DNA of 32,000 nt from contig NZ_CP147990.1 of the NCBI RefSeq assembly GCF_037902255.1, forward strand, positions 2,880,001 to 2,912,000, given 5' to 3'. Below are positions 4,057 through 21,273 of the stretch, piece by piece. Source of the stretch: Candidatus Electrothrix sp. GW3-4. GTDB taxonomy: Bacteria; Desulfobacterota; Desulfobulbia; Desulfobulbales; Desulfobulbaceae. Both the position numbers and the translations under genes were made by a program. Below the pieces are notes generated by a model. It did not search any database. It was not told where the DNA came from and saw nothing but the letters and a program-made list of their open reading frames with translations. Each line of letters begins with the position of its first letter. Within the stretch, counting starts at the first letter, position 1.

Positions 4057-4075
4057 ACTGTCCTCCATCTGCAAT

Positions 4076-4290: not shown

Positions 4291-4341
4291 GGCTGGTTGC
4301 TTTCCTAGGCTTTATGAACGCGGCGCTGGGTGGTGTCGGGA

Positions 4342-5241
4342 TTAATCGGGGTCTGTCCTCGATTTATCGGCCAGAGGCAAACAGGCCTCGATTAAACTAC
4401 CATCGATGTTTTTCGTGTAGATAAAATTACAATATGCTTGAGCGACCGGTATATCGACGCCCCCCGGAGGCGAATCATTGCTGGGCGGAGCGGAATTAGC
4501 CGCAGTCTGAGCTTGGGTAAGGGTATAGGGAACACCGTTTGTAGATGGAAGTTTCATACCACTCACATTCGTGCCATAGGTCATCAAATATCCCGCGACC
4601 GCCGCGCCTGTGCGATTTACTCCTGAATCGCAATGTATATAGATAATGGCATCCTTGATTGAAGCCAGACCTGCGGGAGCATTTGGCAAATTGGCGACTT
4701 GATTCTGGAGTGCGTTCCAAATGGCGGAAATCAGGCCAGTATAATCAAAGCCATCGTTATTGCTTCCCTGCCCAATGGAATTGGCGGGAGATGAACTCCA
4801 AGTGTCACAGACGGCGGTCAATAATTTAGTGTCAAGCGATTGAATAGGCCAGTAAACCATCGTGGTACCACTGGCAATTCCTGAGTTTGTTGCTGAAATA
4901 TAGGTTGGATATGGACCGGAGTTACCATTAATGGAAGTCTTATCACTGGTAAACCAGCTTATTTCGGCATGCACTATTTTCTCGTCTTTGCTACCGATAC
5001 CAAAGCCAATAAGACAGAAATCCACAATTTGGGGGTTGTCGCTTAGGGTAATCTTTCCGCTTGGAAAATTGTGATCATTTTTAATGTCCTTCAGAAAACG
5101 CTCCATCGTAAAATTCGTCGCACCGAAGGCTGAGCTGCCACGTACTAACAGGTTGTTGTCGGTCTCGTCGTAGTCTACAACTCGTACTGAACCGTCCACG
5201 AGAGTCCCATCTCCATGAACCTTAGCCACGTCCTCATTCAT
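4342..5241 (-). CDS. Cys-based protein phosphatase-like protein (CX5R P-loop; atypical DSP/PTP)
   Basis: IYIHCDSGVNRTGAAVAGYLM is an HCxxGxxR(S/T)G signature followed by the AYLM-like helix. Strong RBS AGGAGGA 7 nt upstream of the ATG. I recognise nothing in the rest of the protein. Confidence 0.55.
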   Translation of the reverse strand: MNEDVAKVHGDGTLVDGSVRVVDYDETDNNLLVRGSSAFGATNFTMERFLKDIKNDHNFPSGKITLSDNPQIVDFCLIGFGIGSKDEKIVHAEISWFTSDKTSINGNSGPYPTYISATNSGIASGTTMVYWPIQSLDTKLLTAVCDTWSSSPANSIGQGSNNDGFDYTGLISAIWNALQNQVANLPNAPAGLASIKDAIIYIHCDSGVNRTGAAVAGYLMTYGTNVSGMKLPSTNGVPYTLTQAQTAANSAPPSNDSPPGGVDIPVAQAYCNFIYTKNIDGSLIEACLPLADKSRTDPD

Positions 5242-5477
5242 CGTTAAATCCTCCTGTAATTAAAGAGTACAGGGGTTTTATTTTTAATATTAGCTAGTAA
5301 CAGGTTGCCTTTAAAAGGTAACTGAAGAAATCAGCTACGAATATCCGCAGGTTCTCCGCCGCAGGCTACCGACGACCGAACTTCGTGCTGAAAAAAGGCA
5401 CTGTGGTAGTAAGGGATACAGGAAATCGCCTTTTTCCACTTGACATTACTCCTCATAGATGTCCCCTTTTTACACTT

Positions 5478-6752
5478 CTAGCTTAGCTGATCGCCGTATT
5501 TAAGGATTTGCGGATTTTTGTGTTTACCACGTAACTCGTTCGCCGCCTTTATTGCGTGCGCTACTGTCACTTTACTTGTTCCCGCATGTTTTAAAAGTGT
5601 TTTTTCTGCCATATCATTGTAATCAGGGTGGGCTATCCTGTTTTTGTACCCTACATGGATCACCCTACGTCCATGCATTATCGCTTGGGTATTTTTGCCC
5701 TGCTTATTGTATTTTTGCTTCATCATTTTGCGTTTGACGTACAATGGTCCGGGCATCGTATTACCGTGCCTACCACCAGTCAGCATCATAAGGTTGTCTC
5801 GTGAATTGATGAATAAATCTGGGAGTTGATTTTTCATGCCTACTGATGCTGGTATGATATGCTGGGCTTCTCTTTTTCGTTTCCAATCGGGATAGGATAT
5901 TCCTGTATGCTTTTTTACATCCGCTGATAGCTTGCGCCATGTTGCCGTGCCTGAAGACACCTGGGATTGTTTTGGATGCTTTCTTAAGTAACGCTCTCGC
6001 GCTCCATGCTCCGCATCCCTTGCATGGCGAACACGTTTGCCCCCTTGAAGAATCCTATTAGTCTGCATTTCCTTCCGCACGTCGTTGAATGCTCTTGCTT
6101 TAACTAATTGGGTGGTCCGATCGTTACTATTTTTATAGTATGCTACGCTCTTTCGTTGGTGAATTTGGTGCTGAGCCCGCGCGCACGTACCGTTATGAAC
6201 ATTAACCGATAGCCGTCCCATCTGGTCCGCCTCCTTCTCCAACAGCCTGTTACCGTTCATAGCTTTCCCTCCTACCCACCCCGTCGGCTGCACCCGCCCT
6301 TCCTTCTGCTGCACCACATGCCAAGCCTCATGCGGCAGGTGCTTTTCCTGCCCTGGCGCAATATGAATATTCGTCCCCTGAGTGTAGGCGTGTGCTTGCA
6401 ACTGCGCGGGCTTATCAGAATTATAATGCACCCGCACATCATCCATTGCCATGCCGGAAAGATTCTCCACCCCCGCCTTCAAATTATCCGGCAGCCCCGT
6501 CCGGTTTGCCTGCTTCTGCACCGGCTCTTCCGCTTTGAGTTGCCTGCCCCCATGAAAATCCTTGGCCTGCAAAACTTTCCGCTCCGGTTGGCTCCCTGCC
6601 TTTGTCGGCATCCTCTCCCGCAGCTGCGCTGTGGACTCCCTGTTGTCCACGAAAGAAAAGCCCCGTGCCCTGCCACCCTTTTTCCTCTGCCTTACCGCAG
6701 TGGCAGCCGGAGTCAGGCCGGTCCTCTGATCTTTCCCTTTATATTCCCGCAT
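5478..6752 (-). CDS. DUF4157 (eCIS-core, HExxH) N-terminal domain protein with a divergent C-terminal AHH/HNH-EndoVII-like putative nuclease toxin domain
   Basis: LPDNLKAGVENLSGMAMDDVRVHYNSDKPAQLQAHAYTQGTNIHIAPG...LPHEAWHVVQQ is the DUF4157 pattern. The C-terminus (AQHIIPASVG...INSRDNLMML...HVGYKNRIAHPDYNDM) resembles the AHH-family layout (xHHIIP ... N..LP ... H.G.H..Y). Confidence 0.6.
   Translation of the reverse strand: MREYKGKDQRTGLTPAATAVRQRKKGGRARGFSFVDNRESTAQLRERMPTKAGSQPERKVLQAKDFHGGRQLKAEEPVQKQANRTGLPDNLKAGVENLSGMAMDDVRVHYNSDKPAQLQAHAYTQGTNIHIAPGQEKHLPHEAWHVVQQKEGRVQPTGWVGGKAMNGNRLLEKEADQMGRLSVNVHNGTCARAQHQIHQRKSVAYYKNSNDRTTQLVKARAFNDVRKEMQTNRILQGGKRVRHARDAEHGARERYLRKHPKQSQVSSGTATWRKLSADVKKHTGISYPDWKRKREAQHIIPASVGMKNQLPDLFINSRDNLMMLTGGRHGNTMPGPLYVKRKMMKQKYNKQGKNTQAIMHGRRVIHVGYKNRIAHPDYNDMAEKTLLKHAGTSKVTVAHAIKAANELRGKHKNPQILKYGDQLS
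6282..6752. repeat. Paralogous ~471-bp DUF4157 module, copy 1 (dispersed direct repeat with 10885..11355)
   Basis: The encoded residues 1-157 of the 424-aa and 215-aa proteins align without gaps at high identity. The DNA is visibly similar, for example CATGCGGCAGGTGCTTTTC and GCAATATGAATAT in both. Confidence 0.8.
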
Positions 6753-6782
6753 AAGGTGTCCCTCCTCGACTCTCTGTAATCC

Positions 6783-8161
6783 CTAAATCGTCTTGTTTTC
6801 CTTGCGGAATTCCCGACGAATCGCCAGCAATAATTCCTCTTTGGTCACATGCCGCCGCTCCTGACTGATTGCCGTTAAAGCACAGGTCCTCAACACATTG
6901 ATAATCGCGCCACCAGCCAGTTTATACTCCTCCGCCACTTGCACCAAATCAATATCACCTGCCAACTCGCATGTATCACGGAAGGCGTTTTGCCAGAGTT
7001 GCAAGCGTAGGTCGGCAGAAGGTATGGTAAAATGGATCATGGCCTGGAAGCGGCGGGTAAAGGCCTCATCCATATTGGCCTTTAAGTTAGTGGCCAGGAT
7101 CACAGTACCAGGAAAGTCCTCGATCTTTTGCAGCAAATAGCCGGTCTGCTGATTGGCATGTCGATCATTGGCCGTGGACGCGACCGTTCGCTTGCCAAAC
7201 AGGGCATCCGCCTCATCAAAAAATAAAATCCAATCCTTATAGGCCGCCGCATCAAAGACCCTGGACAGGTTTTTTCGGTCTCGCCAATATATTTGGACAC
7301 GATCATGGACAAATCTACCCTATACACGTCTCTGCCGGTTGATTTTGCCAACAGGGCTGCGGTTAAGGTCTTCCCCGTGCCGGGCGGACCGTAAAAGGCG
7401 GCTCGATAGCCTGGTTTGACCTTATTAGCCAGTCCCCAATCCTCCATCAGAGTATGGTTGTGGGCCAACCAGGCCCGAATCTCTTCCACCTGGGTCATCA
7501 CCCGGTAATCCAGGACCAAGTCGGACCAATTCAAGGGCGTGGTCAGGGCGTGGGCCGGAAATGAGGTGGATAGCTCCGGTTTGACCTCTTCACCGCTGAG
7601 GAAATAATGGAGCCACTGCTCAGAGAGCTTGAGTGCCCCGCTGAGCATGGGCAGGTTCGGGTCCGTGCTTTCCAGACTGATCACCTGCTCAGCCATCAAA
7701 CGGTGCTGGGGACTGAACAGCTCCCTTGCTGGCACATGCCAGGCCGGTTCATTGGCTGCGAGGAGAAAGAGCACGGTCTGGCCAGTGGGCAAAAAGCCGC
7801 TAAAGGCCTTGTCCGTGATCCCGCCAAACTCGCTGAAGCCGCGATCAATCAGTTGGTTGATACCGAAGAGCACATCCAATTGTTCCGGCTTTAAATGGGG
7901 GGCCATGGCCAGGGCAAGCAGCAACCGTTCAAATTGGCGCAGGTCCCAATCCCGGACAATGCCTGCGTACACGCTGTCGCTCTCATCCAAATCGGGCATG
8001 GGGATCTGCCACCAATAGGCTTCATGACCTTCGTGTTTGAGGTAGCTGCAAATGACCTGATGGATCACGGCACCCAACCAGGCTATTTCCCGTAGCAGGA
8101 CCGCCAAATTCTCATCCATAGCCGGGCCTAGCTGTTCAGACTGATAATCGTTCAACATCAT
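6783..8161 (-). pseudogene. AAA+ ATPase (DUF4157/eCIS-associated type) interrupted by a -1 frameshift in a homopolymer
   Basis: Walker A GPPGTGKT lies in the upstream frame. After GETEK the frame is lost at a T6 run (7270-7275, A6 on the coding strand). The next frame reads [28 protein letters not shown]...(Walker B)...QKIEDFPGTVILATN...TRRF. The start codon is uncertain: ATG at 8161, 8158 or 8119; the ORF-track start at 8185 is TTG. Confidence 0.8.
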
Positions 8162-8409
8162 CCAGAGAAATATCCACCCAGTCAAAGAGATCTATGGCTG
8201 TGGTGAGGTTCAGCTCATTACTTTTCATCAAGTTTTGCATATCCCCATTGAGCCAATGAGCAAGATGTTGACTCCCTAAGATTTCTTGACTGGCCAATAA
8301 TTGCTGCAAATAGTGATCATAGGCTGTATCGCTGAAAATCAATTTTTTCGCTTTAAAAAAATAGGCTGTTCTCCTGGCCGGAGTCGACCATTCATACGTC
8401 GCTATATTA
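8136..8409 (-). pseudogene. 3' fragment of a ~282-aa gene of unknown function split by the IS insertion
   Basis: The frame is open from the IS boundary (8409) down to the stop at 8136. It continues the frame of ORF 10056..10649 exactly once the IS and one TSD copy are removed. Confidence 0.75.
8402..8409. repeat. 8-bp target-site duplication CTATATTA (low-coordinate copy)
   Basis: An identical octamer is at 10067-10074, immediately outside the imperfect terminal inverted repeats. Confidence 0.8.
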
Positions 8410-10066
8410 GAGCATCCTCAAAAAGCTAACCTCTCATACAGGCAATACTGCAAGACTTGCCTTGGCATTTGTTCAAAGAACGCCAAAAATCGAGCGATAA
8501 TATGATTCAGCTGGCTGCGTAAAAGTAAAAACCGTGAAAGATATAAATTTTCAAGCTGTTCCTGCAACTTCCTGAGCAGAACCATCAGATTCATGACCAG
8601 GAAGATACAGTTGATCCATGCTTCAGAGGTTCTCTGAAGTTTTGCCCGGATGTAGTTGAGTCGGTAGCCGTTTTTTCCTTGGCCAAATTTCCCCTCAATG
8701 GGGATCCGTTCTCGACTATCCCGAATTCGTTGTGCTTTCAGTTCCCGAAGACGTTCTTTGTTTTCTTCTGTCTCTTTCGGGGACCTGCCCAATCGTTTAC
8801 CACCAAATCGAATACCTTTCTCTTTGAGATATTTACGGTTTTCTCTTGTTCCGTAAATCTGATCAGCCAGTACGACTGCCGGATAGTAACCATTCCGGCG
8901 CTTGTAACTCTCCACTTGCTCACGCAAATCCGTGCCTTCGTTGAAGGCATCCCAACCAATATGATCGACAAAAGCCAAACCATCGACCATGCTCACGCTG
9001 AGTTTGGCACCGAACTCCACATTTTTACCTGCTTTCCCACGAACTATCGGTCGTACATGAGGTTGGGCAATGGAAACAATTCGGTCATCGCAGCGTCGTT
9101 TTCGTTTTTTATACATCTCATCCTGCTGGCGATACACATGCTGAATGATCCAATACTGTCGTTGTTGCTGATGGGGAAGTGGAAAAGGTGCCGTTTCAAC
9201 ATTGTCAAGCAACTCATCAATATATCGCAGATTTCTTCGGATGTACTGTAATTGCTGCCGAAGTCCGCGCCGCAGAATTTTTCGGCCTGGTTTCTTTTTC
9301 TTAGCCAGATTCAGGTAGTTTTTACGGGCAAGTCTCCGATATGTTCTGGGCTTTTTGGCGTAGTCACTCTGTTTGTACAGATCATCAATCAGCTGCTCGG
9401 AAATCTCACGAGCTTCGTTGAGTAAACTCAGATCAGTCGGGTAACGAATCGCTTGCTCAGCAACCGTTGCATCGACAAGCATTTTTCCCTTATTTTCAAC
9501 GGGCTCTTCCTGACTCTCATCCTCTTTTTCGTCTTCATTTGCCGTACTTTTCTTTGAGAGAGCAAGTTTTTCCAAAATCACTTCTTCAAAAGCAGAAAAA
9601 ACATCTTTTCCCATGCGCTTGCGAATTTCAACAAACAGGCTGGGAGCTAGAGGTCGCTTGTCTTGAAAACAAGAAAATCCAACAAAATATTGAAGATAGG
9701 GATTCTCCTGGATCTGAAGTACGGTTTCTTCATCACTGAGCGTCAACTTGTGCTTAATGATTAACGCGCCGATCACCAATCTGGCATCTTTGGCTGGTCG
9801 TCCTTGATGCGGGTCCAAAGTTCGATAATATCTGATGGCGAACTCATCCCACGGAATAACTTTATGCCATTTGATCCATCTGTTTTCAGGGTTCAGTTTA
9901 CCTCCAAACGGAAGGCTGAATCCTTCAAGTGTAAGCTGTCTGTCACTGGTGTACCTGATCATGTGCATGCCTTATGAGGGGGTGAACGTCAAAAACATGC
10001 ATATTTTACAATATTTTTACAACTTTTTCATTTAAAATCAGTGCACTGAGGCTTTTTAAGGGCAAT
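8410..10066 (-). mobile_element. Insertion sequence, 1657 bp, IS5/IS1182-superfamily-like, single DDE transposase
   Basis: It is bounded by the 8-bp direct repeat CTATATTA. The ends GAGCATCCTCAAAAAGC and (reverse complement) ATTGCCCTTAAAAAGC form imperfect IRs sharing CCTYAAAAAGC. It contains one 516-aa transposase ORF. Confidence 0.85.
8418..9968 (-). CDS. DDE transposase (InsH-type N-terminal domain, IS5/IS1182 family-like)
   Basis: The N-terminus (QLTLEGFSLPFGGKLNPENRWIKWHKVIPWDEF...GRPAKDARLVIGALIIKHKLTLSDEETV..IQENPYLQYFVGF) is the pattern I associate with IS5/IS1182-type transposases. The 516-aa length fits. Confidence 0.8.
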   Translation of the reverse strand: MHMIRYTSDRQLTLEGFSLPFGGKLNPENRWIKWHKVIPWDEFAIRYYRTLDPHQGRPAKDARLVIGALIIKHKLTLSDEETVLQIQENPYLQYFVGFSCFQDKRPLAPSLFVEIRKRMGKDVFSAFEEVILEKLALSKKSTANEDEKEDESQEEPVENKGKMLVDATVAEQAIRYPTDLSLLNEAREISEQLIDDLYKQSDYAKKPRTYRRLARKNYLNLAKKKKPGRKILRRGLRQQLQYIRRNLRYIDELLDNVETAPFPLPHQQQRQYWIIQHVYRQQDEMYKKRKRRCDDRIVSIAQPHVRPIVRGKAGKNVEFGAKLSVSMVDGLAFVDHIGWDAFNEGTDLREQVESYKRRNGYYPAVVLADQIYGTRENRKYLKEKGIRFGGKRLGRSPKETEENKERLRELKAQRIRDSRERIPIEGKFGQGKNGYRLNYIRAKLQRTSEAWINCIFLVMNLMVLLRKLQEQLENLYLSRFLLLRSQLNHIIARFLAFFEQMPRQVLQYCLYERLAF

Positions 10067-10649
10067 CTATATTATGGCATTGCTCGATTTTCGCACTTTC
10101 ATGACTGAGCAGCAGAAAGGAATCGGTTTCTGAAGTGGCTGCCGTCATTTCAAGCCGGGCCCGCTTGCCGCCAGCAATGGCCAAGCCCCACCGCTCCACT
10201 TTGGCCACCGCCGTGATACAATACACCTCCCGAAAACTGTAACGACCTTGGGTAACCTGCAAGGTGATATCCTCTTTTAACGCGCTCCAATTGGTAATGA
10301 GGCGACAACGTGGTTCATGACCATGAAAGATAAAACTCCCTGGACGCTTAAGGCTGACCACCTGTTTGCTCCAATAATCAATATGTCCCTCGTCGTTCTG
10401 TTCCTGCCCTGTGCCCGAATAGATTTGTTGAACATCCTGATCTAAACACCATCCCAAGGGATTTAAGGGCAGTGAAGGACTGTGCTCTACGTCCACTTCG
10501 AGGTGGAGGTCTGTCAGAGTTAATAAGGGTTGCAGGTAACCATTTTGGATTTGACAAAGTTCGCCCGGATGAATCTTCCGGGTGAGGGGCTGCATGGGCA
10601 GCCAGCCGGTCTGTAGATAGCAACGCCGGTAAAAAGCGTGATTCAGCAT
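10056..10649 (-). pseudogene. 5' fragment (194 native codons + 3 IS-derived codons) of the IS-disrupted ~282-aa gene of unknown function
   Basis: Good RBS (AGGAGAG) upstream of the ATG at 10649. The last codons D-C-P-stop are read from the IS terminal repeat. Confidence 0.75.
10067..10074. repeat. 8-bp target-site duplication CTATATTA (high-coordinate copy)
   Basis: See 8402-8409. Confidence 0.8.
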
Positions 10650-10707
10650 ATACGTCTCTCCTGGCTTTTATGCGCCCGGGATGAAGCGCGTTCTCGTTTG
10701 CACAGCA

Positions 10708-11355
10708 TTATGCAGCAAAAGCAGCAGCTTTTTCCGCAGCTAAACCGGCTTTCAGTGAGTTGAGGTTGTTTTGGGCATTGGTGAGTTGTTTCTGAGCATA
10801 ATCTAATACCTTCCCCCCCATCACATCCGCTTCCCTCTCCAACCCCGCATCATCATTCACATTCACGCCCCCTTTCATCTGCATGGTGGGCTGCACTCTG
10901 CCTTGCTTCTGCTGTACCACATGCCATGCCTCATGCGGCAGGTGCTTTTCTTGCCCAGGGGCAATATGAATATCAGTCCCTTGCGTATAGGCATGGGCTT
11001 GCAGTTGCGCAGGCTTATCAGAATGATAATGCACATTAACGTCATCCATCGAATAGCCAGACAGATTCTCAATGCCAGACTTTAAGTTGTCCGGCAAACC
11101 TGTGTTGTTCGCCTGCTTCTGCACCAGCTCTTCCGCTCTGCGCTGCCTGACACCATGAAAGTTCTTCGCCTGCAAAACTTTCCGCTCCGACTGTTCCCCA
11201 GCCTTTGTAGGCATCTTCGCCCGCAACTGTACTGTGGACTGCCGGTTGTCCACGAAAGAGAAGCCCCGTGCCCGGCCATTCTTTTTTCTCTGCGCAACAG
11301 CATGAGCGACCGAAGTGTAGTTGTTCTTATTTTCTTTTTCCTGGTATTCCTGCAT
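10708..11355 (-). CDS. Short DUF4157 (eCIS-core, HExxH) domain protein without an obvious toxin domain
   Basis: Residues 1-157 are paralogous to the 424-aa protein (LPDNLKSGIENLSGYSMDDVNVHYHSDKPAQLQAHAYTQGTDIHIAPG..LPHEAWHVVQQ). A short Ala/Asn-rich tail follows. RBS GGGGAGGA lies upstream. Confidence 0.7.
   Translation of the reverse strand: MQEYQEKENKNNYTSVAHAVAQRKKNGRARGFSFVDNRQSTVQLRAKMPTKAGEQSERKVLQAKNFHGVRQRRAEELVQKQANNTGLPDNLKSGIENLSGYSMDDVNVHYHSDKPAQLQAHAYTQGTDIHIAPGQEKHLPHEAWHVVQQKQGRVQPTMQMKGGVNVNDDAGLEREADVMGGKVLDYAQKQLTNAQNNLNSLKAGLAAEKAAAFAA
10885..11355. repeat. Paralogous ~471-bp DUF4157 module, copy 2
   Basis: See 6282..6752. Confidence 0.8.
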
Positions 11356-11509
11356 CCCTCGTCCTCCCCTTTTTTTGTTGCTGCCAGCAGAACCTGCGTG
11401 CGACTTCCCGCTGCCAATAACCGCTAAAAATATCTACATTTTTTCATCAAACCCCGTCCATTCCAATTTTTTTTGGCACCGAGTTTCGATAATGCCCTTC
11501 ACCTCCAGC

Positions 11510-12637
11510 TTACTCCGTCCCTCCCCCTAGCGCACAGACCTTCTGTTCTTCTTCTATGGCTTCATTCTCATCGATACGGCGGAGGCCCTCCATGATCAGC
11601 CCCATAAAGCCTCCCAGGACCGGAAGTTGTCTTTCCTCCTCAGAGAGCCCCTTGCTATAGAAGAACTGACCATCCTGTTTCGCAAGTATATGAAACACAG
11701 CATTTTTCCCTTCATACCTATCGCACTTGCAAAAAACTATTTCTCCTGCATTGAAGAGAACGCCCCCCTTACATCCATCAAAGATAAAATCAACCTTTCC
11801 GGTTTTTCCGCCGGAATTGATCAATTGAAACAGTTCCACTGTATTGATATCCGAGAGCTCGCCATTCATACCGGACGTGATGTTTCCCGCCCGAAGCGTA
11901 TTCTTCTGGACGCGATCCACCAGCACCCTATAGAAAAAAACCTGCAAAACAGGATGGGTGGAAAGAGTAGATTTAAAGTCCGTGGCCTTTAATGAGGCCA
12001 ATTCCACCGGCGTCTTTGAATGCACCGCAGAAGAAGTCAATTCGCCGGAGAGCAGACTCATCTCGCCAAAGATATCTCCCGGTCCGAGTTCGGCTATCAC
12101 ACCGGTATCATCCCGCACCACAGCCACTTCTCCGGCTAAAACGACATAAAAATGCGTCCCCATAGCGCCAGACTCAATAATGATGGTATTGGCCGGATGT
12201 TTTTCCAGCTTCATCAGGAGAGCCAGATCCTGCAGATCGAAATCATCAAGAGGTTCAAAAAGTTCCATCCCCCGGAGGAGCTCAAAAAACTTTCCGACGA
12301 GCTGATTCTTTGCCCGTTTTTTCGAGAGCTCAAGAAGATTCATCTGTAAGGTGGAATAAGCAACCTCCTTTTTGTATTCAAAGCGAATGAGCCCTGTACA
12401 CCCGCCGCACTCAAATTTCTTTTGCCTTACCCCTGGCTGGGAGGGGACGGCAAGACGATGCTTAAGGAGATTGCTTTCGTCCAGTGCTGTGAGGAGTTCC
12501 TGCACCAGCCACACGCAGAGTTCCTTATTTCCTCCTGCAGAGATGGTTGAATCACGGATGATAAATTCATCTCCTACCCGATACACAGGACAGGTATGTT
12601 CTTCTGTAACAACAAAGACGGCATTACGACGATACAC
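11510..12637 (-). CDS. Cyclic-nucleotide-binding (CAP-effector) domain protein with a C-terminal DUF4388-like domain
   Basis: Central block FYVVLAGEVAVV...LGPGDIFGEMSLL...SAVHSKTPVELASL is a cNMP-binding beta-roll with the FGE motif. The C-terminus (LFQLINSGGKTGKVDF...GGVLFNAGEIVFC...GKNAVFHIL) resembles DUF4388. Confidence 0.7.
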   Translation of the reverse strand: MYRRNAVFVVTEEHTCPVYRVGDEFIIRDSTISAGGNKELCVWLVQELLTALDESNLLKHRLAVPSQPGVRQKKFECGGCTGLIRFEYKKEVAYSTLQMNLLELSKKRAKNQLVGKFFELLRGMELFEPLDDFDLQDLALLMKLEKHPANTIIIESGAMGTHFYVVLAGEVAVVRDDTGVIAELGPGDIFGEMSLLSGELTSSAVHSKTPVELASLKATDFKSTLSTHPVLQVFFYRVLVDRVQKNTLRAGNITSGMNGELSDINTVELFQLINSGGKTGKVDFIFDGCKGGVLFNAGEIVFCKCDRYEGKNAVFHILAKQDGQFFYSKGLSEEERQLPVLGGFMGLIMEGLRRIDENEAIEEEQKVCALGGGTE

Positions 12638-12988
12638 GATTATACACCGATTAAATTTTATTCAGGTGGAATTGCGAGAGGAGGGCAGACAAATACAAGG
12701 ACTCTTATTTTATTCAAGGTCTTATTTTTCCGGTTATTTGCTCTTATCAGTTTAACTGATTTGGAGAAAGGAACAAGTCTAATATCGTCGCAGCTCAGAT
12801 TATCCTTGGTGACAATTGAGGACAGAATAATTATCGGGATAAAACCTGTGGTGCAGACGTGTCCTGTATCATTTTTTTACCCATAGAAGCAACGAGATAA
12901 GGCGAATCAAAGAGAGCTGGCGGAAGGGAAGAACAAGGGGCAAGAAAAACCAGGCAAGTTAGGGCAGCTTCGAGTCGTCTTATTCATC

Positions 12989-13873
12989 TTATTCATTAAG
13001 GCCTCCTTGCAAGCTATCATCCTGCTGCTGAACAGAGACGATCCACGGCTCAAGACGACGACCATAGGCCAGCTTGACCTGATAACGGGGTGGCCTCAGG
13101 TCACCGCTCGTTGGTTTATTCCGGGCAAGAGCGGCCTCAAGTTGCTTCCGATACTTGAGGGGGACATGAATACGTTCTATGCTTAACGCTTTGATCTGCC
13201 CGAAAACTTCTTCCCTCTTCTTTTTGTACATATATCCAGGTTTGACCAATCCCTTGGTAATGATGAACCGGGTTCGGTCCTGATATTTTTCTCGTAATTG
13301 TACGGGATCAAGTCCTGCATCAAGGACAAAGAGACGGGACGCACTTATGCGCTCCCGCTGCAACTCATCTTTAGCCCGTTCAACCTCATCGCGCAGGTTT
13401 TTGTCTCCACTGTTGAGCCGAGCGGCCTCTTTCTTCATTTCCAAGACACGTTCTGCTCTCCTGGCAGCTTCCTGATAGAGTTCCCCATCATTTTCCAGGA
13501 CAAGAAAGACCTCTTTGCTCACGAATCGGTCGGAACGCCACCCTGTATTCTTTGCCTGAAGATACTGTTCTATCTGAAAGCCTACCTCCTCTAATTTATC
13601 GGCATTGAACCAGACAGGCGTTCCCCAATGGCCATAATGGATAGACTCTTCATCCTGGCTCAAGGTTCGCCAGGCAAGTTGCAGAGAGATCCCGCTATTC
13701 TCTTTCACCCATTGTCGCGAGAGCGGCAGCTCTCTTTCAGTAAGGAAAATCTCTGCCTCCGGGGTTCCAGATCTATTGAAAGCAACGCCAGAGAGCACCG
13801 CAATATTAACGCCTATGATGAGGACAAAACCGAGGGTAAATAAGGCACGGGAAGAGAGACGGAGTTTCATCAT
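12989..13873 (-). CDS. Membrane-anchored protein of unknown function (possibly DUF4824-like partner of the upstream DUF2157-like gene)
   Basis: There is an N-terminal TM/signal anchor (RALFTLGFVLIIGVNIAVLSGVAF). The start overlaps the upstream stop (ATGATGA). The family name is a weak recollection only. Confidence 0.45.
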   Translation of the reverse strand: MMKLRLSSRALFTLGFVLIIGVNIAVLSGVAFNRSGTPEAEIFLTERELPLSRQWVKENSGISLQLAWRTLSQDEESIHYGHWGTPVWFNADKLEEVGFQIEQYLQAKNTGWRSDRFVSKEVFLVLENDGELYQEAARRAERVLEMKKEAARLNSGDKNLRDEVERAKDELQRERISASRLFVLDAGLDPVQLREKYQDRTRFIITKGLVKPGYMYKKKREEVFGQIKALSIERIHVPLKYRKQLEAALARNKPTSGDLRPPRYQVKLAYGRRLEPWIVSVQQQDDSLQGGLNE

Positions 13874-14942
13874 GCTTCCTCCTGTACGTTGTTGCTGTAT
13901 GATCTTCGCAGCCGTTTAAAAATCAAGAGGATACCGATGGCGGTCAGGCCGACAAGCAGAAAGAAGAGATACTTGGGCAGCCACTCCCACCACCAGTCAT
14001 AAAATTTTGTATAGAGGAAGATGGTAAAAAAGGTGTTGCCGGTATTGACGACCTCGGGCCAGCCATTCCGTATCCCGAGCCAGATAGCTGCTGCGCTGAA
14101 GACAAAGCCGACAATCTGATAGAGAACCTCAATTGAATCTGCGTCAAAATCCAGATAGCTGATCGCTCCCCAATTCGAGAGGATGAGCACCGGGATAAAA
14201 AAAGGAGCAGGGCAAAAACGCGATAGATGACCGTGAAACCCGAGAACTTATGATGGGGAAGGAAAGAGATCAGGAAAAGAATCAGGGCTGCCGGAAAAAA
14301 ATTCTCTGGTCGTTCACCAAAGGAAATCCAATAGCAGCCGCTCCAGGTCCCGGTCTTGGCAGAGAGAAAGGAGGTCAGACAGATGATGCCTGCTGCCAGG
14401 AGCAAGCGCGCGTCAGCGGCATAGGCAAGAAGAAAGGCAAAGAGCGCCCAGACCAGAAAGGCATTGGGCGTGGGGGTAATATTGAAGATCTGGCCGAACA
14501 TGGAAAGGTTGAGGACAAAACAGGCAAGGCTGACCAGACCGAGGAGCTTGGAGAAATAGCCGGTCTTTTCCCTCTGCGAGGCGTAGAGAGTGCCTGTCAG
14601 ACCAAGCAAGGGGGCTGTGATGAGGATAATAACCTGAATGGTGGTCGTGAATCTGCCCCAGAATTGATAGAAGAGGAAAAAGACACTGGCCGCAAGTCCG
14701 AGCGCACCCAGGAAGGAGGCGATTTTCATCCCCAAGCTGAGCTGCTTTTCCCGTCGGTTGACATCAATATCAAAGGCAGAGGCCAGTTGGGTCAGGAGAT
14801 CCTGGTGGTAATCGGCAATGGCGGAGCGTTGGTTGTCCTGAAGGGAGAAAATATTTTCCTGTTCAAGGAGAGCTACTTCAGCCTGAAAATGTCCGATTTG
14901 ATCAGCCCGGCGCTGGGCCTCGGCTTTTGATTTTATTTGCAT
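13870..14942 (-). pseudogene. Polytopic membrane protein (DUF2157-like) with a -1 frameshift in a homopolymer
   Basis: The 332-aa frame is TM-rich up to ...VIYRVFALLLF, then becomes a hydrophilic S/R/G-rich out-of-frame-looking tail. The overlapping frame (13870..14190) continues with TM-like sequence (IPVLILSNWGAISYL...WWWEWLPKYLFFLLVGLTAIGILLIF). The switch point is the A7 run at 14197-14203. Confidence 0.7.
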
Positions 14943-15051
14943 GGAAACGACCTTACCTATTTAAAGAGTATGTTCCCCTTTTCCAGCAGCTCTCTGGTGA
15001 AAGAATTAGCGGACTGAATGAATCTGTTTAATTCTGATCAGAATATTTTCC

Positions 15052-15387
15052 CTAATCAAGTAACAAGTTGGTATCAATCACATGATATTTTTCTTTCCAT
15101 TCCGACAATCCTAGGCCGCAGTTAAAGTTTTCTCCTGGAATTACGAACTGCTTACATTCTTCAGGATATTCATCAGTATCATGTATTTTACAAAAAGCCT
15201 TATGCCAACCTTTCTTTTTTTCATCATAAGTTGGAGGGATTAAATGAATGCAGGGCTTTCCCTCCGGTTTAATTCCTTCGGGATATCCAACAACTCCCCT
15301 CACTTCATATTTTGCACAACAAGCTCCAGATCTTAAACATTTAAACATATTGACACACCCTGTCTGACAATATTTTATTGTCCCCAT
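15052..15387 (-). CDS. Cys-rich protein, YkgJ/CxxCxxCC-type putative zinc- or Fe-S-cluster domain
   Basis: CQTGCVNMFKCLRSGACC ... PCIHL ... FCKIHDTDEYPEECKQF follows the YkgJ-family cysteine pattern. It overlaps the mCpol gene by 13 nt and lies in the AT-rich block. Confidence 0.5.
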   Translation of the reverse strand: MGTIKYCQTGCVNMFKCLRSGACCAKYEVRGVVGYPEGIKPEGKPCIHLIPPTYDEKKKGWHKAFCKIHDTDEYPEECKQFVIPGENFNCGLGLSEWKEKYHVIDTNLLLD

Positions 15388-15758
15388 ATTTTTATTGTAG
15401 TTGCTTCTGCATTTGTTAGAGTAACAACCTGAGCTTTACCCCTAGCTTTAGCTAATTGCAGTGCCAAATATGCTTTTTCAGCAGAATTGCTAATACCCAC
15501 TGAAATAGTGCATACCCCTACAGGTAACAACTCAATAACATTACCCATTTTATCTTTTTCAATATATGCTAGCACACTATCGCCACCACAAAAAACTATG
15601 TTATAACCATTCAACGATAATAATCTACTGATTTTTTTAAAATATATATCAAGTTCATTACTAAAGTTCGAAACATTTTCAATTTCTTCATTAATTATAA
15701 AGGTGCGCAGATGAAGCCCAACATCATCTCCATCAATAGCAATATATGATTTATTCAT
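15375..15758 (-). CDS. Minimal CRISPR-polymerase-like (mCpol) palm-domain nucleotide cyclase, OptS-like
   Basis: It is 127 aa. YIAIDGDDVG is the N-terminal metal-binding strand and FCGGDSVLAY is the GGDEF/GGDD-equivalent. No other domain is present. It sits directly downstream of a TM-SAVED gene. Confidence 0.7.
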   Translation of the reverse strand: MNKSYIAIDGDDVGLHLRTFIINEEIENVSNFSNELDIYFKKISRLLSLNGYNIVFCGGDSVLAYIEKDKMGNVIELLPVGVCTISVGISNSAEKAYLALQLAKARGKAQVVTLTNAEATTIKIWGQ

Positions 15759-15773
15759 AGTAAGTTGCCATAG

Positions 15774-16787
15774 TTAAATATCCAAATTTTGAATGTCTAT
15801 TACACGTTCCCATACTGGTTCAGTATCATTTGGATTGTAAATAATGATATTCGAATTTTCATGCAGTAGTTTTCCAAGAATAAAGGCCAGCGTACAAGGA
15901 AGTCCAGGAAATAAATGTATAGTTCGCCCCTCCATAGTATATCTCGTCAGCACTTCATTAATTTCATAAGAAATTTGAGACATATCCTCTATCTCAATAT
16001 ATTTATTCCTACCCTTAGGAAAGACTTCTACCTTATTATTTGTAATATCTGGGAAAGGTATACGTGACGCGCTAGTGAATGATAAAATTACAGTAATATC
16101 ACCATATTCATTTATTATCTTCTCATTAAATTTTATTTTCTTAACAGAACTTCGACTCTGCGTTCCTTTCAAATTTGGAGCCATAACATATGATGACGTC
16201 GAGTCACAATAATGATATACAACCCAATCTCTTTCTTTTCCTATAGCATACCCAACTCCTATCAATACTGCTGGTTGCGCTATCGTGAATAAATGTAATT
16301 TTGTTTCTATAGGTATTCTCTTAGCATATCTAAAAAAATGATCTGATATATTCTCTACACTATCCTGCCATGATTTAGTTTCTCTAATTGGTTCATCATA
16401 ATATTGCCAATCAATATCAATTATTTTAAATTCTTTTTCTATAAGAAACAAATCGACCTTGTTTCTTTTCAAGACATTTCGTTGTTTTCTAACACTATCT
16501 TTAAAATAATTACTTTTCTTACCAAGACATATTGAATAACCTGAGCTTACATTATATATTGTTATATATACAATTTTCATTGTGTCTATAATAACATATA
16601 ACAAATAAGATACCAAAAGGGTGATTGAAGCATAATCAAGCCAGATAAACCTATTATTGTTTATCGAGTTAGTAATTATTGTCAATACCGTAACTGGAAA
16701 AATAACAATAACTTCGCCATGCAAACCCCATAGCTGATCTATAAATACACAAAGAAAGTTTTTATTATTATCAGGTTGATTCATCAT
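15774..16787 (-). CDS. Transmembrane-SAVED effector (N-terminal TM helices + SAVED nucleotide sensor), OptE/Cap14-like
   Basis: Hydrophobic helices lie within residues ~20-80. Two CARF-like pseudo-repeat signatures are present: LHLFTIAQPAVLIGVGYAIG and IHLFPGLPCTLAFILGKLL. Confidence 0.7.
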   Translation of the reverse strand: MMNQPDNNKNFLCVFIDQLWGLHGEVIVIFPVTVLTIITNSINNNRFIWLDYASITLLVSYLLYVIIDTMKIVYITIYNVSSGYSICLGKKSNYFKDSVRKQRNVLKRNKVDLFLIEKEFKIIDIDWQYYDEPIRETKSWQDSVENISDHFFRYAKRIPIETKLHLFTIAQPAVLIGVGYAIGKERDWVVYHYCDSTSSYVMAPNLKGTQSRSSVKKIKFNEKIINEYGDITVILSFTSASRIPFPDITNNKVEVFPKGRNKYIEIEDMSQISYEINEVLTRYTMEGRTIHLFPGLPCTLAFILGKLLHENSNIIIYNPNDTEPVWERVIDIQNLDI

Positions 16788-17012
16788 TAATAGCTACTCT
16801 GGCACCAGATACATATCAAATAATTTCAAAAAAGGGTCATAGCTATATAATCTACTTACTAATGCTTCACTAGCAGAGCCCTTTTATTTCAACAATGCAA
16901 TCAATCTCAATCACCAGCCCTTCAACTATCTCAACAAAAAAATCAAAAACTCCGATGTCCAGATCTCCAGATCAAACCCTCAGATAACCTGATCTAAAAT
17001 TTAGGTGAGTTT

Positions 17013-17117
17013 ATCCAAATTTTGGATAAAAAGATCCACCTTGTGAGCTTTTTTGTCCAACCACTGGGCTTTTTAATCCACCCAGTGGACTTTTAAATCC
17101 AATTCGTGGACCTTTTT
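17013..17117. repeat. Five tandem 21-bp iteron-like repeats, each with an internal dyad TCCA-N5-TGGA followed by a T tract
   Basis: (A/G)TCCA starts at 17013, 17034, 17055, 17076 and 17097, an exact 21-bp phasing. The units are ATCCAAATTTTGGATAAAAAG, ATCCACCTTGTGAGCTTTTTT, GTCCAACCACTGGGCTTTTTA, ATCCACCCAGTGGACTTTTAA and ATCCAATTCGTGGACCTTTTT. Confidence 0.8.
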
Positions 17118-17167
17118 GCCCCCAAAATAGATCTCGAAACAGCCGGGACAAATCTTCTCACCCATCA

Positions 17168-17302
17168 CCTAACTCCCCTCAAACTTCCTCCGAAAATGAT
17201 CATACGCCGCATTGATCTCCTTCATCTTCTCCTCAGCAACCCCCTTAAACTCATCACCTAAATGGGCCACCTTATCCGGTTGATACTGCATGGAAAGCTT
17301 AC
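17168..17302 (-). pseudogene. Displaced duplicate of the last 40 codons + stop of the djlA-like gene (J-domain remnant, HPD -> QPD); left copy of a 135-bp direct repeat
   Basis: 128 of 135 nt are identical to 20412..20546 in my hand alignment. It translates to [40 protein letters not shown]. Confidence 0.85.
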
Positions 17303-17332
17303 CTCTCCTTTCCCAAAAAAACACCGTGCAGA

Positions 17333-19948
17333 TCACGCCTGTCCTTTACGGGTCATCTCAAGAGCATGTCGATAAATATCAGGAATTTTATAACGAGAGG
17401 CCTTATCATCGCGTTCTTCATATACAGACAAAATGCCTACTTCCTGAGCAAGAGGGATAAGCTCCTGATTTTTTCCTAAGTCACTTGCTGCAACCGGAGT
17501 ACGCCCAACTCTTTTGAGATTATCCAAGAGGGGTTCCAGTTCTTTAAATTCCTCTTTGAGGGCCTCCAAGGCCTGTACAGAAACTTCAGGGAGACATTTA
17601 ATCAATGCCCGTGGACGCATGAGAGCACGCGGGTAACGTGAACGATTATTTTCTTTTCGTTCCCATGGCACCGCCTCATGAAAAAGCTGGAGAAGATAAC
17701 GCGGGGTGTGATCATTATTGCTGTCAGCCAGTCGGGTCCAAACCCAGTTTCTTGTGAAAGCTGTCCTTCCTCCCTGCATACGCTCGCCGACAAGGATATT
17801 CCAGACAGCAAACACATCTTTTTCTGTCCAGGAGTCTACAGGCCTTTTTTCAGGATCAGGGAGCTCAGATTTTTTTTGCAAAAACTCACGAAAGGGCTTA
17901 CAGCGCAGGGCCTGCTTCAGGATAACTTTGAGAAAAGTGGCCTGCTCTTTCCATTTAAGCTCAACGCTTCTCCCGTACAGATGGCTTTTGTTTTCAAAAT
18001 GCAGCTTCCGCCAGATGTCTTCCCGCAGAAGTATTTTAAAATAAAAGTGCTGTAGATTTTGCCCCTGATTCATCAACAAATCGAACAATCCTTCTATGGC
18101 CGCTGACCGGCGGGTTCTGTCCTGCGGAGTGCTGCCAAAGCCTGTATCCAACCCGTCAAGCAGCAGGAACGTATCTCTTGTTGTCTTGCCATCCAAACGA
18201 AGAAGCCAGTCATTGAGTTCCAGAGATGCTCCCGGTATTTCAGCTGTTCTTTTAAATGCAACTGAGATTTCCCGTTCAGATTGCAAAGGAACCTCTTTCA
18301 GATATTCCGGCATATCAACATCAAGGTCCAAAGAATTCATTATGGCTGTATTGACATAAAGAATCCAAAAATGCCTCCAGGACAATTCACTATCATTGAT
18401 AATTTTCTCAATATACTGAAAGCCGTCCACGCTGATTATCCAGCTTTTTCCCTGCTTCAGAGAAGCCGGGGCATGGACGACCACTGTACTGTATCCCTTA
18501 TCGTCCTCTGATATTCTTCTGAATATCGCCGTTTTCCCAGAGCCTTTTCTTCCAAGAACAAGGGGAATACGGGCAGAAAGGGCATCTTTAACAATCGTCG
18601 TTTCCACAAAGCTGTCTAAAAACGCCCCCTGACTTTCAGCCGTACCCGGTGCAAAGGTCAAGGTCCGTAAAATTTCATCCTTTGCCCGTTCCAGAGATTC
18701 TGCCTGTTGAACTTCATTTTCAGAGGGGAGAAAACGTTCTATCCAATTGACAACCGGTTCAAATTCTTTCCAGATGACAGGATCTTGCAGAATGGCATTG
18801 GATGAGGCGATATCATCCCGATAGCGAATAAAATGGGTGAGTTCATTTTCATCAGAGGATAATTCCTCCCTCTCGCTATTGACTCTATGCATCCATTCTG
18901 CAATCCATCGAAGTGATTTTTCTTTATACCTATTGATAAGTTCCGGGATATTGGGCAGAGGAGATATTAAAAAACGCGGTTCCGGAGTTAATCGCTGACC
19001 AGCTGTCTTCCTTTCTGTAGAGGAGGCAAGCAGCCCCTGGGTCAGCAGTTGCGTACCTAACCGAGCCTGAGGATGGGGGAAAAAGGTGATGATTGCAATA
19101 TCAGCCAGATCAAAAAGAAGGGGTCCGTTAATATCGGTGATGCCTGTCCTGGCATCAAGCAGAACGACATCAGGCGTGAACGGCAATTTTTCTTTTATAC
19201 CAGCCAGCAGAAGTTTTAAGGGGTTATGTTCCTCTCTGTACCAGGCATCAGGAAGAATAAAGCGTAATTTCCGGGCATAATCAGGGGAAATTTGTCCTGC
19301 TGGAATTAAATAAATATTGTCCGCATCCGGCACAGGGATCAGGTGGGAAGAAAAATCCGGTTCTTCTCCCTGATCAAGTTCCATAAGTAAAGAGACAACA
19401 CCTTTATCAGGGCGAACTTCGTTTTCGCAGGCAAATAATGAAGCGAGGCCCGGAGCCTCCAAGTCCATGTCAATACAGACAACCTTGCGCCGGTTTGCTG
19501 ACAGAATATGTGCGGTGTAGGCAAGTGCGGTTGAGCGCCCGACTCCTCCGCGAAGCGAATAGAATGTTGTTACAATCGGAGGGGGGATATCATCGTCAAG
19601 ATCAGAAGGAAAAATGACTTCCGCAGAATTTTCCGCAGAATTTTCAAGAGCACCTTTGGCAAGTTTTTCCGGCCACAGCGGCAGGTCTTCAAGCTGAATA
19701 TCACCGGGCAGGACCCCTATCCATTCCCGCTCTTCTGGAGTAACCAGCTCAATCCATTCTATGGTTTCTTCAATTTCTTCAAGAACAATCTGCCGTCTTT
19801 TTTTTTGCGGTATATCGCGGAACCCTTCCGCGACAACAGCAATCTGCCAGCCGCCATAGGGATCTTGCCGAACAATAATGCGTTCAGTATCAATGCTTGC
19901 CCGCTTTAAATTATTTTCAATTATGAACTGCAGCTCGTCTTTATTCAT
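17333..19948 (-). CDS. 871-aa two-NTPase protein: ParA/MinD-like domain with a variant deviant Walker A (RGGVGRST) fused to a second P-loop ATPase (GRKGSGKT)
   Basis: FYSLRGGVGRSTALAYTA...VVCIDMDLEAPGL...VVLLDARTG fits a ParA/MinD fold (the KGGVGR-variant family as I recall the NCBI naming). The second half has IPLVLGRKGSGKTAIFRRI and FLLLDGLD (Walker B-like). The ATG overlaps the HEPN stop (TAATG). Confidence 0.7.
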   Translation of the reverse strand: MNKDELQFIIENNLKRASIDTERIIVRQDPYGGWQIAVVAEGFRDIPQKKRRQIVLEEIEETIEWIELVTPEEREWIGVLPGDIQLEDLPLWPEKLAKGALENSAENSAEVIFPSDLDDDIPPPIVTTFYSLRGGVGRSTALAYTAHILSANRRKVVCIDMDLEAPGLASLFACENEVRPDKGVVSLLMELDQGEEPDFSSHLIPVPDADNIYLIPAGQISPDYARKLRFILPDAWYREEHNPLKLLLAGIKEKLPFTPDVVLLDARTGITDINGPLLFDLADIAIITFFPHPQARLGTQLLTQGLLASSTERKTAGQRLTPEPRFLISPLPNIPELINRYKEKSLRWIAEWMHRVNSEREELSSDENELTHFIRYRDDIASSNAILQDPVIWKEFEPVVNWIERFLPSENEVQQAESLERAKDEILRTLTFAPGTAESQGAFLDSFVETTIVKDALSARIPLVLGRKGSGKTAIFRRISEDDKGYSTVVVHAPASLKQGKSWIISVDGFQYIEKIINDSELSWRHFWILYVNTAIMNSLDLDVDMPEYLKEVPLQSEREISVAFKRTAEIPGASLELNDWLLRLDGKTTRDTFLLLDGLDTGFGSTPQDRTRRSAAIEGLFDLLMNQGQNLQHFYFKILLREDIWRKLHFENKSHLYGRSVELKWKEQATFLKVILKQALRCKPFREFLQKKSELPDPEKRPVDSWTEKDVFAVWNILVGERMQGGRTAFTRNWVWTRLADSNNDHTPRYLLQLFHEAVPWERKENNRSRYPRALMRPRALIKCLPEVSVQALEALKEEFKELEPLLDNLKRVGRTPVAASDLGKNQELIPLAQEVGILSVYEERDDKASRYKIPDIYRHALEMTRKGQA

Positions 19949-20361
19949 TACAACATCCTTCGACTCCGATGGATATTTTTGTTAATCCAGCCTGTGAGCT
20001 GCTTAGCGGCAGTCACCAGTTCCTCTGCCGAATGAGTCAACACATCGATATTGCTCTGATACCGCAGGGCGGTGTCCCAATCTTCAAGGAAAAACGTCTT
20101 TGCACCAGTGCGATCGTTAAGATCGGAACTTCGAAAACCAGCTGCCCGCCAGAAGCCCCGAAGATTGTGCCCTTCTTTACCTTTAGTTGGGAATCGCCTG
20201 TTCGTTTTTTTCAAATATGCCTTGAGCATACACTCAACAGCATACCCGGCCATATACGCCGGTCCGACAGAGTTATTTCTTGTCGGAAGCATAGCGTCGG
20301 CATCGCCAGCACGTTCCTTGGCTGTGTCAATCCAGTCTTGAAATGATTGCGGATCGTTCAT
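19948..20361 (-). CDS. HEPN-domain protein (classical PF05168-like four-helix type)
   Basis: AKERAGDADAML...GPAYMAGYAVECMLKAYL ... GHNLRGFW ... ALRYQ follows the HEPN helix pattern (A..DL..A..L...A.F.A.QA.E..LKA.L ... H.L..L ... RY). No clear Rx4-6H is seen. Confidence 0.55.
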   Translation of the reverse strand: MNDPQSFQDWIDTAKERAGDADAMLPTRNNSVGPAYMAGYAVECMLKAYLKKTNRRFPTKGKEGHNLRGFWRAAGFRSSDLNDRTGAKTFFLEDWDTALRYQSNIDVLTHSAEELVTAAKQLTGWINKNIHRSRRML

Positions 20362-20411: not shown

Positions 20412-20546
20412 CCTAACTTCCCTCAAACTTCCTCCGAAAATGATCATAGGCCGCATTGATCTCCTTCATCTTCTCCTCAGCCACCCCCTTAAACTCATCA
20501 CCTAAATGAGCCACCTTATCCGGGTGATACTGCATAGAGAGCTTAC
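20412..20546. repeat. Right copy of the 135-bp direct repeat (functional 3' end of the djlA-like gene)
   Basis: See 17168..17302. The two copies bracket 17303..20411. Confidence 0.85.
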
Positions 20547-21273
20547 GGTAGGCCTTTTTGATGGCAGCAAAATCTGCCCCCTGCTCCACCCCGAGCACGG
20601 CATAATACTGCTGCTCAGCCGGAGCACCGCCGCCAACACCGCCGGACCTCTGCTTTTGATGCCCGTACCGGTATTTATTCTCCATGGTCCGGCGCTCATA
20701 TTCACTAATGCTCAAAAATTGCCCGATCTTGCGGGCCAGATTAAGCTCTGCCTCTTCTGCAGGGCTCTTGGTAAAGATGAGTTGATAGATCAGCTCCAAC
20801 AGGATCAGGCGGGGCTCATAGGCAAAGCGGTTGCGGAACTCGGTGAGCAGGGCATCCAGGTCCTGCTCTTCATCACGGGCCTCCTTGATCAGCTGCTTGA
20901 CCCAGTACATCTGCTCCTGGTTATAATGGAGCGAGTGCTGGAAGAAGTTGAGCATGGTCCGCAACTCGGACTTGGTGAAATGGCCGTCTGCCTTGGCAAT
21001 GCAGACCAGGATATTGACCAGAAGAAAGACAAAACGATTATGGGTCTCGCTCTGGGATTGCTCGTAGGCTGTGGCCCGGCTCTGGATATATTTGGTAAAG
21101 CCAAAAAAGGCCGCAAAGAGAACGATTACCCCGAACAGACCAGAGTAAATAAGGACAGAGACAAAATTCCCCACAGCCTGCCAGCCACCAGTGGCCAACA
21201 GGAGGAGGATCACAATCAAAAGACAACCGCCGCAGCCCGGCTGGTTGCTGTTATAGCTGTACTGGCGTTGCAT
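20413..21273 (-). CDS. djlA: DjlA-like co-chaperone: N-terminal TM segments, TerB-like domain, C-terminal J domain
   Basis: TM region ([15 protein letters not shown].., [15 protein letters not shown]). TerB-like block ([20 protein letters not shown]). J domain ([31 protein letters not shown]). Confidence 0.75.

Follow-up and report, generated by a model that had tools for sequence, protein, structure and literature searches.

A cysteine-cluster protein as a probable third component of a Panoptes-related mCpol cassette in Candidatus Electrothrix sp. GW3-4

The minimal CRISPR polymerase (mCpol) is the signal-making enzyme of the Panoptes systems. In Panoptes type I, mCpol (OptS) is combined with an S-2TMβ effector (OptE) (PMC12657218, PMC12657230), in type II with a CARF-TM effector, the signal being cA3 (PMC13577387). 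For both types it was shown experimentally that synthesis is constitutive and that the nucleotide keeps the effector off (PMC12657218, PMC12657230, PMC13577387). The mCpol systems are currently seen as two-gene guards with an unregulated synthase. Here we describe a locus from the cable bacterium Candidatus Electrothrix sp. GW3-4, located in a stretch of 32 kb of contig NZ_CP147990.1 (henceforth the window), in which the mCpol gene (gene 2) is placed between a gene for a SAVED protein with two transmembrane (TM) helices (2TM-SAVED, gene 1) and a gene for a small cysteine-cluster protein (gene 3). From its recurrence beside mCpol genes elsewhere, gene 3 is very probably a genuine third member of the system.

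Exactly this locus (WP_339133456.1) is listed in Supplementary Table 3 of PMC12657218 as 'TM+TM+SAVED->mCpol*->', that is, with two genes. A cysteine-cluster partner of mCpol was found neither in this table nor in the literature searched, Burroughs et al. 2015 being outside that search. In this respect a preliminary description of the window, made from the sequence alone, was right to call the third gene undescribed. The same description had taken mCpol plus 2TM-SAVED for a characterised Panoptes pair, which has to be corrected, since the characterised effectors are of the 2TMβ and CARF-TM kinds and the pairing with SAVED has only been catalogued (PMC12657218, PMC13577387). Its remark on the effector-first gene order does not point to a peculiarity either, as several loci in Supplementary Table 3 have the effector upstream of mCpol (PMC12657218).

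The three open reading frames (ORFs) form a tight array on the minus strand. Their positions, lengths and strand were reproduced exactly as first described, and every motif quoted at that time is present. Gene 1 (15774..16787, 337 aa) is separated by 15 nt from gene 2 (15375..15758, 127 aa), which is followed by gene 3 (15052..15348, 98 aa with the start codon preferred below). The three products are identical to WP_339133457.1, WP_339133456.1 and WP_339133455.1, respectively, of Candidatus Electrothrix sp. GW3-4. With approximately 1.8 kb, the cassette is small enough for easy synthesis and is directly testable.

Gene 2 matched PF18182 at 1.6e-22 with 80.5 bits (cut-off 26.4), covering profile positions 1–113 of 114, and NF033576 at 8.5e-20 with 71.5 bits (cut-off 40). 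Both catalytic acidic motifs, DGDD and GGD, are intact. A profile built from the mCpol clade of the window reached about 6e-23 against the solved OptS/mCpol chains 9mnr and 9nwn. Furthermore, the AlphaFold2 (AF2) model of gene 2 (pLDDT 94.8) found OptS/mCpol structures as its best PDB matches in Foldseek (9pd0, 9mnr and 9nwn; E 1e-10 to 1e-8), with TM-scores of 0.75–0.87 to OptS at 32–33% identity, the palms of GGDEF proteins and Cas10 ranking below. The earlier assignment of gene 2 as a palm-domain mCpol is thereby borne out by profile and predicted fold alike: the model is that of an mCpol with a single Cas10-type palm.

The SAVED assignment of gene 1, with hydrophobic helices at the N-terminus, was likewise upheld. 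It matched PF18145 at 6.4e-11 over residues 162–332 (42.7 bits, curated cut-off 26.2) and the NCBIfam SAVED model at 1.4e-15 over residues 119–332 (57.6 bits, cut-off 33), and its best PADLOC models belong to the SAVED4 group (3.5e-15). Two N-terminal TM helices, at about residues 20–43 and 47–77, were called from Kyte-Doolittle hydropathy in 19-residue windows scoring above 1.5. The profile matches of gene 1 were to SAVED models only; it corresponds neither to the S-2TMβ effector of type I nor to the CARF-TM effector of type II. The 2TM-SAVED gene carries a frameshift inside the second TM helix in a related population of Electrothrix (L001, L003, L004 and L053, at about 1930–1990; three independent assemblies), with mCpol and gene 3 remaining intact, and one other contig has an intact copy of 336 aa. 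The frameshift may reflect the inactivation of a toxic effector.

One clade of gene-3 proteins adjoins mCpol in no fewer than six independent types of locus, which comprise three effector designs (2TM-SAVED, a separate CARF-HEPN and a fused CARF-HEPN-mCpol) and two gene orders. The order 2TM-SAVED, mCpol, gene 3 is found in the window (gap of 26 nt between the latter two), in L001, L003 and L004 (62 nt in L001) and in one Logan contig, as well as in L054, where mCpol and gene 3 share an ATGA overlap. In L016, an unrelated metagenome-assembled genome (MAG), gene 3 comes first, followed by 2TM-SAVED and mCpol with gaps of 16 and 13 nt, and the contig fragment L046 carries gene 3 and then a TM-SAVED-like N-terminus. 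CARF-HEPN, mCpol and gene 3 succeed each other in L044 (ATGA overlap) and L055 (17-nt overlap). Finally, a CARF-HEPN-mCpol fusion (PADLOC 4e-110) precedes gene 3 by 70 nt in L006.

Neighbour-joining groups the gene-3 proteins linked to mCpol in a single clade. The mCpols from linked loci without a fusion also fall together, in one clade of ten members which includes that of the window and in which six have gene 3. Among approximately 58 mCpol loci of other clades, L006 excepted, none had a gene-3 relative or a CxxCxxCC-type ORF within 2.5 kb, only spurious short ORFs being seen. The fused mCpol of L006 is far from the window's mCpol clade, yet its gene 3 is 68% identical to that of the window, which suggests that gene 3 has been exchanged between mCpol systems.

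An exhaustive profile search of 1.84 billion proteins yielded only 22 representatives of the gene-3 family at E<=1e-3, and with so small a family chance adjacency is negligible. That gene 3 would be an incidental or hitch-hiking neighbour without any role in the mCpol system is very improbable, even if the wider family also occurs without mCpol, one orthologue (L005, see below) has no adjacent mCpol and the published catalogue enters the locus as two genes. Such a hitch-hiker is hard to reconcile with the recurrence in at least six linked locus types, some of them with start/stop overlaps, with the grouping of all linked proteins in one clade of a family of about two dozen representatives, and with the selection acting on the gene. 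The ratio of non-synonymous to synonymous substitution rates (dN/dS) of gene 3 is 0.083 against a relative of 80% identity, that of mCpol 0.19. Gene 3 is thus a real gene under strong purifying selection and not a chance ORF. Recurrence beside mCpol in other genomes had been named at the outset as the test for an incidental neighbour, and it is what we observe.

The length of gene 3 needs to be revised. The longest ORF (15052..15387, minus strand, alternative start at 15387) has 111 aa, and only with this start does gene 3 overlap gene 2 by 13 nt. The eight clade relatives free of contig-end truncation all have their start at the position corresponding to M14 or slightly upstream of it, none of them having the 13-aa extension. 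The four closest relatives (89%, 78%, 68% and 45% identical) are 98–99 aa long, three of them beginning with MFKCLRSG, and the extension is absent from the more distant clade members L016, L054 and L055 as well. In L001 the gene-3 reading frame is closed upstream of the aligned ATG, and the NCBI call WP_339133455.1 has 98 aa and begins with MFKCLRSG. These comparisons place the start of gene 3 probably at M14, resulting in a protein of 98 aa encoded by 15052–15348, 26 nt downstream of mCpol, rather than the 111 aa first reported. With this start the 13-nt overlap drops out together with the first two cysteines, so that the N-terminal C-x3-C of the longer ORF probably lies outside the translated protein. 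The cysteine spacing in that ORF is in any case C-x3-C-x5-C-x5-CC, slightly different from the C-x3-C-x6-C-x6-CC given before. As for the proposed translational coupling to the cyclase, it probably does not hold in the window, where it depended on a probably wrong start codon, but genuine ATGA overlaps are found in the homologous loci L044 and L054. The AF2 model of gene 3 shows a compact and confident fold (pLDDT 94.5).

Considering all this, our confidence is slightly on the side of a three-gene cyclic-oligonucleotide signalling cassette, related to Panoptes, with gene 3 acting on the synthase or on the signal. In such a cassette mCpol would make a cyclic nucleotide, probably a cyclic oligoadenylate, and the 2TM-SAVED protein would bind it and control a membrane-damaging output. 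By analogy with Panoptes types I and II, a constitutive signal would hold the effector off until phage sponges or phosphodiesterases remove the signal and the effector is released. Gene 3 would modulate the output of mCpol as a cofactor-bearing regulatory subunit, presumably in contact with it; it would be a small metal-cluster protein (Fe-S or Zn) working at the level of synthase or signal and not tied to one effector. Taken as separate parts, we give an action of gene 3 on mCpol or its signal an even chance, and the Panoptes-like inverse logic, which is transferred from the two characterised types, appears to us equally balanced. Since gene 3 keeps company with the signal-making enzyme in a number of genomes that are not related, it is probably a missing regulatory part, and because it is facultative, being missing from L018, it would be a modulator rather than an essential brake. 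A more specific version, which we consider possible though rather doubtful, makes gene 3 an Fe-S sensor subunit that binds and gates mCpol and so provides a subset of the mCpol systems with a second trigger (redox, iron status or a phage protein) independent of sponges.

The points which weigh against this three-gene cassette concern the identity of gene 3, its distribution, the surroundings of the locus and the published record on mCpol neighbourhoods. Regarding identity, the gene 3 of the window gave no match to PF03692 at E<=1 (gathering cut-off 23 bits), and hhalign against YkgJ of E. coli reached 60% probability over 25 columns in the C-x-I-[HY]...C-x-x-F segment, a weak result. Neither a sequence search against the PDB nor Foldseek of the model against it returned anything significant, and Foldseek against a viral library gave nothing significant as well, its top entry being a YkgJ-family protein at E=2.1. 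The family motif reads C-L-R-[C/S]-G-x-C-C ... K-P ... C-x-H-L ... C-x-I-H ... Y-P-x-x-C ... C-x-x-G. In the window it begins CLRSGACC, i.e. CxxSxxCC in place of the literal C-x2-C-x2-CC, and the second motif cysteine is serine in all members of the mCpol-linked clade for which the N-terminus is present. Membership of gene 3 in PF03692 was rejected on both grounds, the missing match and the deviating motif. Within the gene-3 family PF03692 was matched by three of 26 members, weakly, with a best E of 0.092. One relative, P0033, scores 26.6 bits on PF03692, above the cut-off of 23, and was itself found by the gene-3 profile at 8.6e-22. The designation 'YkgJ-type' can thus stand only for a probable remote, transitive relationship, with P0033 as a candidate intermediate, and not for a direct assignment, and by sequence gene 3 is most likely a rare, divergent branch of the CxxCxxCC/YkgJ superfamily outside PF03692. 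The metal chemistry proposed for it is drawn from analogy with FliB, the one relative of this motif type that has been studied biochemically. An oxygen-sensitive [4Fe-4S] cluster is bound there by an N-terminal CX4CX3CC motif, which the authors compare to PF03692 (PMC8598068). Gene 3 may accordingly be supposed to bind a metal centre, either Fe-S or Zn.

Regarding distribution, L018, a close CARF-HEPN plus mCpol locus, truly lacks gene 3. It was also not seen in the sequence available for L017, in which an insertion sequence (IS) element directly follows mCpol, and for L057, with 272 nt upstream; L056 is too short to judge. Conversely, L005, a 1.2-kb contig of Ca. Electrothrix sp. ATG2, carries a gene-3 orthologue of 78% identity without mCpol within about 400 nt upstream; this gene 3 may be a true orphan, or its isolation may stem from the fragmentation of the MAG. 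Upstream of it come approximately 400 nt without coding sequence and part of an unrelated gene. Strain ATG2 has two other mCpol loci, both with CARF-type TM effectors and not with SAVED (Supplementary Table 3, PMC12657218). The mCpol of L017 lies downstream of a TIR-CARF-HEPN fusion, and that of L057 adjoins genes which by eye look like type III CRISPR, including a 607-aa protein with a GGDD motif. As to the surroundings, a Pfam scan of 20 of the larger ORFs (>=120 aa) around the cassette within the 32-kb window revealed neither a cyclic oligonucleotide-based anti-phage signalling system (CBASS, CD-NTase) nor type III CRISPR (Cas10). Finally, the combinations of mCpol with 2TM-SAVED or HEPN are known as neighbourhood classes only, and the authors explicitly leave open whether the nucleotide acts negatively or positively on these effectors (PMC12657218 section 12).

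This last point leads to the main rival, activating signalling, in which mCpol is silent, gene 3 is a sensor of infection or stress that switches mCpol, and the nucleotide turns on 2TM-SAVED or CARF-HEPN, as happens in CBASS and type III CRISPR. Canonical SAVED and CARF-HEPN effectors are indeed ligand-activated (Cap4, CalpL, Csm6). Moreover, mCpol has no sensor domain of its own, which makes gene 3 a natural candidate for the input, and gene 3 tracks the synthase across effector types. We nevertheless regard activation as unlikely, albeit to be taken seriously, for both tested mCpol systems are constitutive and inhibitory (PMC12657218, PMC12657230, PMC13577387) and a locus such as L018, without gene 3, would be left without sensor and brake alike.

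Gene 3 might also belong to the system without acting on the synthase, as an immunity or antitoxin-like partner, a factor of signal turnover or a regulator of cassette expression. Its small size, its facultative occurrence and its operon position, which varies from first to last, fit such a role, and in type III CRISPR loci small accessory genes, ring nucleases among them, are reported to be optional in a similar way (PMC12409355). Against it, gene 3 goes along with effectors of unrelated chemistry (a membrane protein and an RNase), and this speaks against immunity towards one particular effector; profile scans gave no match to a nuclease-like or DNA-binding family; and the more distant relatives stand in unrelated housekeeping contexts. 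A role of this kind therefore appears quite unlikely. The relatives outside the mCpol-linked clade (26–52% identical) occur in other contexts, none with mCpol nearby: overlapping a gene for an RluA-type pseudouridine synthase, next to MscL or MraZ, and in genomes of the candidate phyla radiation (CPR). In L008–L011 (approximately 5067–6378) the distant relatives P0034 and P0036 overlap the 3' end of the RluA-type gene by 17 nt, which constitutes a second conserved pairing of the cysteine-cluster family, unrelated to mCpol.

A conserved third protein which follows the synthase across effectors would mean that signal production can be tuned or sensed in at least one lineage. Gating by an Fe-S form of gene 3, if true, would for the first time reveal a regulatory input into the 'minimal' CRISPR polymerase, otherwise constitutively active, and would define a third, three-component Panoptes type working with either SAVED-TM or CARF-HEPN effectors. 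The locus bears on the question raised in the Panoptes papers, whether SAVED and HEPN effectors are inhibited or activated by the nucleotides that mCpol makes, and it offers a first functional context for one branch of the YkgJ/CxxCxxCC proteins, which are poorly understood.

The cassette is situated in an AT-rich island (14950..17100) with 32.8% G+C as compared to 49.2% for the entire window, confirming the impression of a block richer in A+T than its surroundings. Flanks above 50% G+C, as first estimated, were found on the left (53–55% at about 14.4 kb) but not on the right (45–49% at about 17.4 kb). At third codon positions G+C is 20–28% in the cassette genes, against 58% and 42% in two neighbouring genes. 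In three backgrounds the cassette is lower in G+C than its host, namely in the window, in L016 (38–43%, flanks 56–58%) and in L055 (45–52%, flanks 59%). The best explanation is a horizontally mobile, foreign-looking cassette. In Electrothrix relatives it is found at the same chromosomal position, its DNA being 80% identical and a neighbouring gene 92%, and strains differ by several kilobases in the region around it. The island edges are marked neither by a tRNA nor by an integrase or flanking direct repeats, and searches of the IMG/VR viral contigs and of phage and plasmid records did not turn up gene 3.

On the 5' side of the cassette lies a non-coding region (16788..17168, minus strand), which presumably contains the promoter and a 5' leader. 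A search of this upstream region gave no Rfam riboswitch or other RNA family match, and promoter-like matches were not above the expectation from shuffled sequences. Tandem Repeats Finder (TRF) reported a 21-nt tandem repeat at 17047–17102 (2.7 copies, 80% match). The interval upstream of gene 1 is shorter by about 410 nt in the relative L001. An ORF of 55 aa (17169–17336) is located between gene 1 and a gene for a protein of 871 aa. The latter is part of a PADLOC candidate system, PDC-M28, which is directly upstream of the cassette (17333–20361, minus strand). The 871-aa protein matches PDC-M28B at 5e-28 and PDC-M28C at 1e-14, has no Pfam match at E<=1e-4 and shows two P-loop-like motifs by eye; a HEPN-like protein of 137 aa matches PDC-M28A at 1.5e-6 and, weakly, Pfam HEPN. 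This pair looks like a candidate defence system with fused B and C genes, and together with the mCpol cassette it gives the impression of a small defence island. A TerB-DnaJ fusion of 286 aa (20413–21273, minus strand) is encoded a short distance upstream of the PDC-M28-like genes. In L002, gene 3 is followed almost directly by a cNMP-binding/DUF4388 gene and then by a Smr-like gene (compared with 3100–14942 of the window), from which we conclude that approximately 8.4 kb of the window are strain-specific. This part contains two eCIS_core/DUF4157 paralogues, an IS DDE transposase and an AAA/IetA-like ATPase, and the DUF2157 plus DUF4824 pair of the window is likewise strain-specific.

Comparing the individual components with known families, gene 3 has the same order of cysteine motifs as the CxxCxxCC/YkgJ proteins of PF03692, with an N-terminal C-x2-C-x2-CC-like element, C-x-[HA]-L, C-x-I-[HY] and C-x-x-F, and differs from them by the exchange of the second cysteine for serine throughout the mCpol-linked clade and by the lack of a PF03692 match of the window protein. 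Compared to FliB it is much smaller and has no methyltransferase context. The published neighbourhoods 'TM+TM+SAVED->mCpol' and 'CARF+HEPN(+)mCpol' (PADLOC model CARF_HEPN_mCpol) include the locus of the window, the catalogue showing two genes and listing the cysteine-cluster gene neither here nor in any of the related entries searched.

Among the experimentally characterised systems, Panoptes type II resembles the locus in pairing mCpol with a membrane effector that has a Rossmannoid sensor, SAVED and CARF being related folds (PMC12657218 section 12); the locus differs in having SAVED with two N-terminal TM helices and in its third gene. With Panoptes type I it shares the stand-alone mCpol synthase, whose fold matches OptS with a TM-score of about 0.8, the tight operon arrangement with a membrane effector that senses nucleotides and has two TM helices, and the defence-related context. 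The sensor, however, is SAVED here and a Cap15-like β-barrel in type I, the active-site motif is GGDS here and AADG in OptS, and there is a third conserved gene. CBASS and type III CRISPR are frequent but not defining in the neighbourhood of many Panoptes loci, and neither was among the window ORFs scanned. A Panoptes operon consists of two genes, whereas a conserved third gene occurs here as well as in no fewer than five further types of locus. Hence the locus is most likely a three-gene variant of the Panoptes-related mCpol systems, in which a cysteine-cluster partner unreported in the literature searched is joined to an already catalogued two-gene core.

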